64,000 nt of DNA, from NCBI GenBank assembly GCA_021774255.1, contig JAJFJF010000012.1, positions 30,259 through 94,258 of the forward strand, in the 5' to 3' direction. The stretch comes from Gammaproteobacteria bacterium. GTDB lineage: Bacteria > Pseudomonadota > Gammaproteobacteria > JAJFJF01. Shown here one piece after another: positions 12,048-51,891 of this stretch. Position 1 is the first letter of the stretch, and every line of letters starts with the position of its first letter. The notes beneath the pieces are model-generated. The model was not told the DNA's origin and did no database searches. It saw nothing but the letters and a program-made list of their open reading frames with translations. A program made the translations under genes and the position numbers.

Positions 12048-12081
12048 AACATACATGCCGATGTTACACCATATATATAGA
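12048..12081 (+). promoter_or_regulatory. conserved regulon promoter motif copy (aCATACatgccGATGTTACACCATATATATAGA)
   Basis: It is one of 7-8 copies of the same ~35-bp motif in the window. It lies 40 bp upstream of the ATG at 12122. Confidence 0.55.
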
Positions 12082-12121
12082 AACAAACGTTAAAGCGAAT
12101 TATTAATCAACACCTATCAAC

Positions 12122-12466
12122 ATGAACATCTGTTATCTTAATCTTCGTGACATGACTCCTGGGATGTTCATCTACGAGCGGCCTATCTCAGCCGAGGATA
12201 TCGACCCAAATAGCCTCAGCCCGGAACAAGTTTTCTTGGTTAAGGGTGGGGAGCTGGAATACAAGCTTCTGGAGCGGGTCTCTGACGGTAAACTCTTCCT
12301 GCTCTATTCGCACACTCGAACGACTGACACGGCTGAAGGGCCACATCCACGCATCACATTCAAGCACGCCCTACGCGGTGTTCCTCCTGCTTGGAAAGCG
12401 CCAGCTAAAGGGCCTTCTAAAAGTGAGTCTTGGTTTGGCAGTTGGTTTGGCAGTTGGTTTGGTTAA
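12122..12466 (+). CDS. small hypothetical protein with C-terminal SWFG x3 tandem repeat
   Basis: The 114-aa ORF sits downstream of the conserved motif. Its 3' end has three tandem 12-bp units AGTTGGTTTGGC encoding SWFGSWFGSWFG. I recognise no family. Confidence 0.45.
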   Translation: MNICYLNLRDMTPGMFIYERPISAEDIDPNSLSPEQVFLVKGGELEYKLLERVSDGKLFLLYSHTRTTDTAEGPHPRITFKHALRGVPPAWKAPAKGPSKSESWFGSWFGSWFG

Positions 12467-12625
12467 AAGCAAGAGTCAGCCTCTTTCAGAGAAATAATAG
12501 TCATTTTTATTACTAAAAAACATCATCAAAAAGGGTCAGGCATATTTAATAAGTTTATTATTGAAGCTACTTTGCTGATGACAGTGATCCAATAGGCAAG
12601 AAAACTAATTTATAAGAAACAGAGA

Positions 12626-13360
12626 ATGTCTTACAATGTGAGCATGAATAAAGACCAAGCCAAACAACTATCAAAAAAAGTCATTTTAATCACCGGCGCG
12701 GCCAGCGATATTGGCCAAATGGTGGCAAAGGCCTACGCTAGCCACGGCGCTGAACTTATCTTGCTCGATCGGAATACCGATCAGCTTACCGCGCTTTATG
12801 ATGAGATTGCCGCCACCGATGCCCCTACGCCCGCGCTTTACCCGCTACATCTTGCCGGCGCCAGCCCAGAAGATTATCAAAACCTTGCCGATAATATCGC
12901 AAAAGAATATAGCCACTTAGATGGGTTAGTTCATGCTGCAATGGAATTAGGCACCCGCACGCCGCTGCCCCTCTATGACATTAAACGCTGGTATGAAGTA
13001 CTGCAAGTTAACGTAAACGCCCCTTTCATGCTGACCCAAGCTTTGTTTGAATTGCTTAAAAAAGCCCCTGCGGCTTCTGTTGTCTTCACTCTCCCGGACA
13101 TTGGCCAAGAAAGCCAAGCCTACTGGGGTGCCTTTGGCGTCTCAAGATTTGCCGTGCAGGGCCTCGCCCAAGTGTTTGCGGATGAAGTAGCAGAAAATAC
13201 TTCGATTCGCGTGAGCACAGTTGCTCCCGGAAAAGTACGCGCTCAGTTAAGAGCAAAAGCCTTTCCTGCTGAAGAAGCATCTGAACTTCCATCTATTAAC
13301 AGCCTAGAAAATTTATACTTAGAAAAAATAGTTAATTTAATACCTGAAGAAATTAGCTGA
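12626..13360 (+). CDS. SDR-family short-chain dehydrogenase/reductase (YciK-like)
   Basis: It carries the Rossmann motif VILITGAASDIGQ. Its length and layout are typical of SDR proteins. Confidence 0.8.
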   Translation: MSYNVSMNKDQAKQLSKKVILITGAASDIGQMVAKAYASHGAELILLDRNTDQLTALYDEIAATDAPTPALYPLHLAGASPEDYQNLADNIAKEYSHLDGLVHAAMELGTRTPLPLYDIKRWYEVLQVNVNAPFMLTQALFELLKKAPAASVVFTLPDIGQESQAYWGAFGVSRFAVQGLAQVFADEVAENTSIRVSTVAPGKVRAQLRAKAFPAEEASELPSINSLENLYLEKIVNLIPEEIS

Positions 13361-51713: not shown

Positions 51714-51814
51714 TCTTCCTAAGCGCTTAGTGGCGTTTTGAAGTCACTCAACGCTAGGCGAGTTTTTTAGAGAAAAAAGCAAGAAACCCTGTATAAATCT
51801 TTGAGTTTCCTTGT

Positions 51815-51850
51815 CTAGAAATATAGGGTAACAGGGAAGTGTATGTTTTT
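51815..51850 (-). promoter_or_regulatory. conserved regulon promoter motif copy (minus strand) for the 43500..51713 gene
   Basis: The reverse complement reads AAAAACATACACTTCCCTGTTACCCTATATTTCTAGA. It matches the core at 16 of 22 positions. It lies ~100 bp upstream of the start at 51713. Confidence 0.45.
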
Positions 51851-51856
51851 AGGATA

Positions 51857-51891
51857 AAAGTTACATGCGGAAGTTACACCATGTATTCAGA
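51857..51891 (+). promoter_or_regulatory. conserved regulon promoter motif copy for the 51983..60505 gene
   Basis: The sequence is AAGTTACATGCGGAAGTTACACCATGTATTCAGA. It matches the core at 18 of 22 positions. It lies 91 bp upstream of the ATG. Confidence 0.45.

Follow-up and report, generated by a model that had tools for sequence, protein, structure and literature searches.

Response regulators of the OmpR/PhoB family recognise tandem sites 10-11 bp apart, as in the pho box (7+4) and in the sites of CtrA (TTAA-N7-TTAA), WalR (TGTWAH-N5-TGTWAH) and PmrA. Half-sites within the family include TGTWAH for WalR, TT(A/T/C)ACA for Bacillus subtilis PhoP, GTnAC for AfsQ1 and TGTTA for ArcA, and PmrA and CpxR motifs have been used to discover Legionella effectors. 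Among alternative sigma factors, the RpoE-type promoter reads GGAACTT-N16-TCAAA, and that of sigma-32 reads CTTGAA, 13-14 nt and CCCCATnT. Promoters of the RpoE/ECF (extracytoplasmic-function) type generally combine a -35 that contains AAC, 16-17 nt of spacer with no conserved bases, and a short -10 such as TCAAA or CGTC. Here we describe a 34-bp element built around two TTAC sequences 13 bp apart, which recurs in a 64,000-nucleotide stretch of an uncultured gammaproteobacterium (GCA_021774255.1, contig JAJFJF010000012.1, positions 30,259 to 94,258; this whole stretch is called the window). The element lies in front of genes for large GLUG-repeat proteins and of a few unrelated small genes, and is likely to act as a promoter module.

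PmrA-dependent promoters of Icm/Dot effector genes are known from Legionella pneumophila and Coxiella burnetii (Zusman et al. 2007, as cited in PMC4117601, PMC2701608), and PmrA-type motifs served to find effectors (PMC2701608). Our element resembles the PmrA regulon in that a tandem repeat lies directly upstream of, and in register with, a -10 sequence (a putative one here) before many non-homologous effector-like genes. On the other hand, the half-site is TTAA(T) in PmrA and TTAC here, and the period is about 11 bp in PmrA and 13 bp here. The PmrA targets belong to Legionellales and carry type IV secretion signals, whereas the targets here carry Sec signal peptides and membrane anchors and the organism falls outside Legionellales. 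Its RecA is a singleton whose nearest others are 83-89% identical, the named ones being of Thiodiazotropha, Thiohalomonas, Chromatiales and Woeseiaceae type (84-89% for the first three). No PmrA/PmrB genes were seen in the window. The original prediction had invoked the Legionella and Coxiella promoters, and this analogy survives as a functional likeness: the PmrA regulon is the closest functional analogue, but the TTAC module is not a member of it, as half-site, spacing and taxon differ.

Copies of the element were sought by reading the places where they had been claimed and by searching both strands of the window for [AT]TAC-N9-[CT]TAC. Coordinates run from the AAC prefix through the terminal AGA, and scores come from a matrix of 10 sites (all sites known, from the window and from a relative described below), with 40 shuffled windows as background. 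Six clear copies are present, with the consensus aAAC-(T/A)TAC-(A/C)-N7-G-(T/C)TAC-NC-(C/T)ATaTnTnYAGA. The copy with the highest score (42.7 bits) is AAC-ATAC-A-TGCCGAT-G-TTAC-AC-CATATATATAGA at 12048-12081(+), ending 40 nt 5' of ATG 12122. Two copies flank each other near tRNA genes: TAC-ATAC-A-CGTCGAT-G-TTAC-TC-TATATATTTAGA at 30278-30311(-) (35.8 bits) ends 75 nt 5' of ATG 30202, and AAC-TTAC-C-CGCGGAT-G-CTAC-AC-CATATATATAGA at 30356-30389(+) (39.3 bits) ends 10 nt 5' of ATG 30400. Next to recA, AAC-TTAC-C-TGACGAT-G-TTAC-CT-CATATGTATAGA at 37807-37840(+) (38.2 bits) ends 55 nt 5' of ATG 37896. The remaining two stand back to back with 10 bp (51848-51857) between the modules as delimited; AAC-ATAC-A-CTTCCCT-G-TTAC-CC-TATATTTCTAGA at 51814-51847(-) (33.2 bits) ends 100 nt 5' of ATG 51713, and AAG-TTAC-A-TGCGGAA-G-TTAC-AC-CATGTATTCAGA at 51858-51891(+) (34.4 bits) ends 94 nt 5' of ATG 51986.

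The 34-bp motif is real in the window. A 31-nt IUPAC pattern allowing up to 2 mismatches finds 3 sites, with 0.00 expected from 100 shuffles. With the 10-site matrix, the six clear copies score 33-43 bits, compared with 11.8 bits for the best unrelated site and 17.5 bits for the shuffle maximum, and leave-one-out scores are 19-40 bits. Pairwise identity between copies is 70% over the motif and 89% over its conserved columns, but 38% over the internal N7 and 27-29% over the flanks. As the flanks are at random identity while the motif is conserved, the copies represent a discrete motif rather than duplicated segments.

Two weaker copies are also present. ATC-TTAC-C-TTTGCTT-G-TTAC-GC-CATTGATCAGGA at 23506-23539(-) is half-degenerate; both half-sites are intact (TTAC-N8-G-TTAC) and the -10-like part has decayed, but its score of 21.2 bits is higher than that of every shuffle. 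It ends 22 nt 5' of ATG 23483. AAT-TTAC-C-CACCCGT-G-TTAC-GC-TACTAGAAAGGA at 23733-23766(+) is strongly degenerate and ends 18 nt 5' of ATG 23785. It keeps TTAC-N8-G-TTAC, but at 4.8 bits it is not significant by itself, and what supports it is its position, as it faces the copy at 23506-23539 and is homologous to intact sites in the relative. Thus, of the seven clear copies originally listed, six hold and the one at 23565(-) has no TTAC-N9-TTAC on either strand, the half-degenerate copy being nearby; the degenerate copy predicted near 23735(+) exists, with position alone in its favour.

All copies are intergenic and aimed at the adjacent start codon, from which the motif end is 10-101 nt away, as had been claimed. 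The half-degenerate copy meets this description after a change of gene model. In the longest open reading frame (ORF), 19338-23552(-), this copy falls within the first codons, between the candidate starts 23552 and 23483. The second Met of this ORF (ATG 23483) opens a proper signal peptide (MFGEIFLLFLLIEAACAQA) resembling those of the paralogues, and for this reason the start, 23 codons too early in the longest ORF, should move to 23483.

The strongest new evidence for the motif comes from a related organism, in which it is conserved. When the 1297-aa GLUG protein of the window served as a protein query, full-length homologues were returned from NCBI contigs, and two more from Logan assemblies (SRR31558127, SRR31558122). 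The Logan contigs L007 and L008 (SRR31558127; GC 44-45%) each contain one head-to-head pair, made of a gene like 23785-27678 and a gene like 19338-23483. Their proteins are 28-39% identical to those of the window, and blastn detects no DNA similarity, the DNA around the motif being no more alike than random sequence. The intergenic region of each contig has the motif twice, once toward each gene. The sites are AAC-TTAC-A-CCAAATT-G-TTAC-AC-TATATG and AAC-TTAC-C-TTCAATT-G-TTAC-CA-CATAGG in L007, and AAC-TTAC-A-TTATGGT-G-TTAC-CA-CATATA and AAC-TTAC-A-CCGAATT-G-TTAC-GG-CATATA in L008. These four are the only matches of [AT]TAC-N9-[CT]TAC in the two contigs. The degenerate pair of the window (23506-23539 and 23733-23766) is thus the positional homologue of these intact sites.

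A second matrix was made from the four sites of the relative only, and scanned on both strands of the window (128 kb) with 30 shuffles. Ranks one to six went to 37810+, 12051+, 30359+, 23536-, 51844- and 51861+, and rank eight to 30308-. The first four, including the half-degenerate 23536- (18.9 bits), scored above the best of the 30 shuffles, and the top score was 25.5 bits for 37810+, which is the copy beside recA. The top three window matches all belong to non-GLUG targets. The consensus across both lineages is AAC-tTAC-(a/c)-N6-T-G-TTAC-NN-cATAT-n-t-nn-agA. The core common to the relative is AAC-TTAC-M-N7-G-TTAC-NN-YATAT, with the AGA 2 nt farther downstream than in the window. Since the motif has outlived all surrounding DNA similarity, there is good evidence for a dedicated regulator.

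We considered whether the copies could instead be a promoter cassette that was placed before genes as a mobile promoter or by duplication, so that no dedicated regulator would be needed and conservation would reflect recent copying. The copies at 12048-12081 and 30356-30389 do have one identical 16-nt stretch in common (ACACCATATATATAGA), and the genes downstream are unrelated, one of them lying near tRNA genes together with a GLUG remnant and a perfect 60-nt direct repeat. However, the N7 and the flanks have fully diverged while specific columns are invariant, and the same columns are kept in the relative despite the loss of detectable DNA similarity. Such column-specific conservation across lineages points to purifying selection on a recognition sequence, not to recent copying, and makes this account very improbable. 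Terminal inverted repeats of a mobile element, or recombination sites, were rejected as well; the copies always face outward to genes, the non-coding DNA within a divergent pair measures only about 10-200 bp, and some copies are unpaired.

The internal geometry of the element is strict. The register of TTAC, 13 bp, TTAC, 2 bp and YATAT is identical in 10/10 sites of the window and the relative, so the fixed 13-bp spacing upstream of a -10-like sequence that was first noticed in the window is invariant throughout. The distances outside the element are variable, as modules of divergent pairs are separated by about 10, 44, 64, 193 or 199 bp and the distance to the start codon varies likewise. A fixed internal register with variable external distances suggests that each copy is an autonomous promoter unit, where some specific recognition event has to keep phase with the -10 element.

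The layout has the geometry of a sigma-70-type promoter if the -10 hexamer is TATAnn, at motif positions 3-8 after the NN. With this assignment, cTTACa becomes the -35 hexamer, which matches TTGACA at 4/6 positions, and the spacer is 16 bp. The two TTAC elements would be at about -33 and -20, and the invariant G-TTAC would occupy about -21 to -17, inside the spacer. A conserved cA would be at -14/-13, an A/T-rich upstream tract would take the proximal UP-element position, and the AGA would be near the putative start site. Leaders are short in several cases (10-25 nt). The last T of the -10 hexamer, however, is not conserved in the 10-site alignment. In a scan for sigma-70 promoters (at least 9/12 hexamer matches, a -10 whose second base is A and whose sixth is T, and spacing of 16-18 nt), no canonical promoter was found at the pair 51814-51891 or at the pair 30278-30389. 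Because of the unconserved T and the negative scan, the housekeeping holoenzyme alone is unlikely to use these sites well. The poor sigma-70 matches, in combination with the invariant register between TTAC and -10, argue for a dedicated DNA-binding protein.

A bound protein could also repress. In this alternative, sigma-70 or sigma-S would use cTTACa-16 bp-TATAnn as a constitutive promoter, and the TTAC pair, or the partial dyad ACA-N6-TGT, would be an operator. Bound proteins usually occlude polymerase at the places that the two elements would take, the spacer for the proximal and the -35 for the distal element. The -35 matches the consensus at 4/6 positions, and in several copies the -10 does so at 4-5/6. 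In 7/10 sites the inner bases make up a partial inverted repeat. On the other hand, operators usually vary in position relative to the -10, while the register here is invariant, and both the unconserved last T and the rejection of the sites by the consensus scan argue against a constitutive promoter. In addition, the dyad does not account for the AAC prefix or for the T and C that are invariant in the second TTAC. We therefore rate repression as improbable, if less so than a copied cassette.

The original prediction assigned the element to the OmpR/PhoB family of response regulators; in this version, the two TTACs would be tandem half-sites of a winged-helix protein acting as PmrA does at Legionella and Coxiella effector promoters or as PhoB does at pho boxes. 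The layout of direct repeats in an activator-dependent promoter stands. The repeats are in fixed register with the -10-like element, with (T/A)TAC and (T/C)TAC in the same orientation in 10/10 sites, the targets are effector-like with ankyrin and leucine-rich-repeat (LRR) regions, and the half-sites resemble those of WalR, B. subtilis PhoP, AfsQ1 and ArcA. TGTTAC fits the WalR half-site TGTWAH exactly, and TTACA is similar to that of PhoP. Like the pho box of PhoB class-II promoters and other OmpR-family boxes, the element would have short direct repeats in place of the -35 and a weak putative -10. The family assignment is harder to sustain, as the period is exactly 13 bp in 10/10 sites and not 10-11 bp. 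The proximal half-site would be at about -20 and not at about -25 or farther upstream, reaching about -17 and deeper into the spacer than in pho boxes. No response regulator or histidine kinase was found when window ORFs of at least 120 aa were compared with Pfam, and the RecA places the organism outside Legionellales. A regulator of this family is unlikely, with odds of perhaps the same order as for the sigma factor discussed next.

The main rival is that the module is read without a separate activator by an alternative sigma factor, either of the ECF/RpoE-like kind or sigma-32-like, with AACTT as -35 and nCATA(T) as -10, 16 nt apart. AAC-TT, 16 nt and (C/T)ATA do have RpoE-type geometry, and the spacing is strictly fixed as in such promoters. 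C-n-c-YATAT resembles the sigma-32 -10 element CCCCATnT, and exported or membrane proteins, which make up the targets here, are typical of many ECF regulons. At the last -10 position, the T required by sigma-70 is unconserved. However, the spacer contains the invariant G-TTAC, which sigma factors do not normally read and which is present in neither RpoE/ECF nor sigma-32 promoters. The -10 differs from TCAAA of RpoE and fits no ECF group that we can name. For sigma-32, the distance from CTTACA to C-n-c-YATAT is only 11 nt, making the spacer 2-3 bp too short, and there are no chaperones or proteases among the targets. The window has neither a sigma nor an anti-sigma gene; its LuxR-type protein hits Sigma70_r4_2 only via the common helix-turn-helix. 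We consider this rival doubtful, about as much so as an OmpR/PhoB-family regulator.

Other promoter types were tried and dropped. Reading GCCGAT in the N7 as a sigma-28 element fails as the relative has AATTG there, and TGTTAC as an ECF -35 element has no conserved -10 downstream. A MerR-type promoter would need a spacer of 19-20 nt and not 16 nt. A T7/SP6-like promoter and a CRP-like dyad were discarded because the spacing does not fit or because the relative does not conserve the features they need. The CII-dependent promoters of phage lambda (TTGC-N6-TTGC straddling the -35) are similar in having a tetranucleotide direct repeat at the -35 of a poor promoter; the spacing there is 10 bp and not 13 bp, the tetranucleotide is another, and the window is chromosomal without phage context. 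A scan of viral contigs with the strict pattern gave 0 matches.

We thus favour, with a probability of roughly 0.55, the reading that the module is a self-contained, lineage-specific, factor-dependent promoter that is activated by a dedicated DNA-binding protein. In the mechanism we envisage, a sequence-specific protein encoded outside the window would bind both TTAC elements as a dimer, in tandem or pseudo-symmetric arrangement, and would recruit RNA polymerase by class-II-type activation. Transcription would probably start at, or just past, the conserved AGA. The outcome would be that a secreted, membrane-anchored GLUG-ankyrin-LRR family is co-expressed with a few unrelated small genes. What the sequences show directly is a significant motif, its orientation and position, its occurrence before non-homologous genes and its persistence in a relative. 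That it works as a promoter, where transcription starts, that the effect is activating and not repressing, and that a factor of some family reads it are inferred.

Several points weigh against this reading. Promoter function and start site are themselves predictions from sequence. A candidate regulator for the motif was not found encoded in the 64-kb window, and the related sequence available to the comparison amounts to only about 13 kb. A 13-bp period would put tandem monomers on different faces of DNA, which is unusual for known tandem-binding activators, and the proximal TTAC in the spacer (about -20) occupies a position more typical of repressors or MerR-type factors. In addition, cTTACa-16 bp-TATAnn might be sufficient as a weak sigma-70 promoter without any activator.

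As for the identity of the reader, we suggest only tentatively, at odds clearly lower than those for an activated promoter as such, that it has an unusual mode of recognition, being either an activator bound in tandem or pseudo-dyad fashion to the 13-bp-spaced TTACs across the -35 region and the spacer, or an undescribed alternative sigma factor that also reads the spacer. In both cases this uncultured and probably host-associated lineage would have a regulon of its own, consisting of giant GLUG-ankyrin-LRR surface proteins and their small partners.

The motif provides a sequence handle on co-regulated genes in an organism known only from assemblies, and the target genes look host-directed, as they include giant exported proteins with ankyrin and LRR regions. 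A matrix of the module could enumerate the regulon across the genome and its relatives, helping to define a host-interaction regulon in an uncultured lineage, and could flag the 114-aa and 268-aa ORFs described below as functional partners. The strict 13-bp spacing makes the identity of the regulator a well-posed question. What is new is a lineage-specific promoter or regulon motif with unusual spacing; a new principle would follow only if its reader proves unusual. A literature search gave no mention of a TTAC-N9-TTAC element, nor of GLUG with ankyrin in symbionts.

Searches of public collections used the strict IUPAC pattern, which is over-fitted to the window in that it requires YAGA at an offset absent in the relative. 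Among GTDB species genomes it matched once, in a Rickettsiaceae metagenome-assembled genome, and in JGI metagenomes five times without GLUG context; all these matches were judged to be chance. As the pattern would miss the relative's own version, these scans, like that of viral contigs, are uninformative on diverged versions of the motif. Two further Logan contigs with GLUG proteins, L012 and L013, were dismissed as relatives, being from unrelated organisms with 60% and 51% GC. L012 has TTAC-N8-G-TTAC-CA-CAT at 160-195(-), 220 bp upstream of and divergent from its GLUG gene, scoring 8.3 bits and followed by a 42-codon ORF, which is probably a chance match. The recA locus of the relative was not recovered, as the two Logan RecA matches examined come from other organisms and lack the motif. 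In L008, GC-rich palindromic stretches (ccgcggacaataccgcgg ... cccgcggctcgtccgcggg) at 1860-1990 lie between the divergent motif copies and may be an inserted repeat element.

The targets include non-homologous genes, namely those of GLUG-ankyrin-LRR membrane proteins, a 268-aa membrane protein, a 114-aa ORF and a 109-aa ORF. The motif hence does link GLUG genes with unrelated small genes, as originally proposed, being a discrete, oriented, promoter-proximal element that is kept in the relative. The four large GLUG paralogues share one architecture: a Sec signal peptide, repeats of the GLUG and ankyrin types, an LRR-like region and, at the C-terminus, a conserved membrane domain with multiple passes. 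Where three of four giant GLUG genes had been named as targets, clear sites precede two of the four large paralogues (both giants) and degenerate sites precede the other two (both 1300-1400-aa genes).

The giants are the 2737-aa protein of 43500-51713(-), target of the copy at 51814-51847, and the approximately 2839-aa GLUG-ankyrin protein of 51986-60505(+), target of the copy at 51858-51891, for which the ORF list has a GTG start at 51983. The degenerate copies belong to the GLUG-ankyrin-LRR membrane protein of 19338-23483(-) with the start revised from 23552, and to the 1297-aa GLUG-ankyrin membrane protein of 23785-27678(+). Two further GLUG genes, 2510-4027(-) and 5927-7465(+), are without the TTAC motif. 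An 80-aa GLUG-repeat remnant at 29960-30202(-) follows the copy at 30278-30311; it matches Pfam Glug with E=0.0023 and the GLUG repeats of the giants by BLASTP with E-values down to 6.5e-10.

Among the non-GLUG targets, the copy beside recA serves a 268-aa protein (37896-38702(+), divergent from recA) that combines a signal peptide, a linker rich in Ser and Pro, and a membrane domain with multiple passes. In a collection of 1.84 billion representatives, two weak homologues were all that could be found for it. Six paralogues, including one of the 268-aa protein, are encoded on other contigs of 184,734, 120,434 and 82,867 bp. Homology of this protein to the C-terminal membrane domain of the GLUG proteins was ruled out, with an hhalign probability of 0.4% and no BLASTP match. 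The 114-aa ORF at 12122-12466(+), downstream of the copy at 12048-12081, ends in SWFGSWFGSWFG and has no Pfam family and no signal peptide, and its exact sequence was not found in the protein collection searched. The 109-aa ORF at 30400-30729(+), which follows the copy at 30356-30389 and adjoins tRNA-Arg and tRNA-Ser, is of doubtful coding status and matched no Pfam family; it is possibly a frameshifted gene running on to about 30905. A small RNA or terminator 3' of the 30356 copy was considered and rejected, as the fold had z = -1.5, which is not significant, and a terminator was not found. An Rfam scan of the window returned two tRNAs only.

Around this site, a perfect 60-nt direct repeat occurs at 31119-31178 and 31300-31359, 181 bp apart. 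Its second copy extends into the 3' end of tRNA-Ser(GCT), and the repeat has the look of an att-type duplication that an integrating element left behind. Two motif copies lie in the adjoining region 30200-30990, together with the GLUG remnant and the doubtful 109-aa ORF.

The general gene order around the element is recA-recX-alaS-aspartokinase-csrA-tRNA-Ser-tRNA-Arg, and mutS ... nlpD-surE is also present; recA, recX, alaS, lysC and a sodium symporter-like ORF (10348-11703) were assigned by translation and gene order only. In the region 40933-61339, the head-to-head giant GLUG genes (17 kb) fill the interval from mutS to nlpD, a VTT-domain gene and surE. In many gammaproteobacteria, rpoS follows nlpD in the mutS-nlpD-surE interval; no rpoS is there in the window.

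A second motif is found near the other GLUG genes. A LuxR/GerE-type protein, the only regulator found in the window, has a palindromic site of its own that differs from the TTAC element. This palindrome, TTTTTGCTGCATGCAG(C/T)AAAAA, occurs at 4445-4466 and 5819-5840 with at most 1 mismatch; any other match in the window has 2 or more. One copy lies before an operon that encodes a 195-aa protein (4447/4502-5034(+)) and a 254-aa paralogue with a C-terminal LuxR/GerE helix-turn-helix (5031-5795(+)), and the other precedes the GLUG gene 5927-7465(+). The palindrome (TTGCTGCATGCAGCAA) is unrelated to the TTAC motif, and its presence before a GLUG gene would put the GLUG genes here in at least two regulatory groups. 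Legionella has regulator-effector islands with the LuxR-type auxiliary regulators RegK3 and LexR1 (PMC13555631). Like these islands, the region 4445-5840 combines a LuxR-type regulator having an unrecognised N-terminal domain with neighbouring effector-like genes and an inverted-repeat site, and by this analogy it looks like a local regulator-effector island of the same kind.

Two AAA_14/DUF4143 ATPase genes (1062-2255(-) and 39465-40670(-)) and a DUF4172-Fic gene (9167-10270(-)) are placed among the housekeeping genes, and may be mobile or defence-related cargo.

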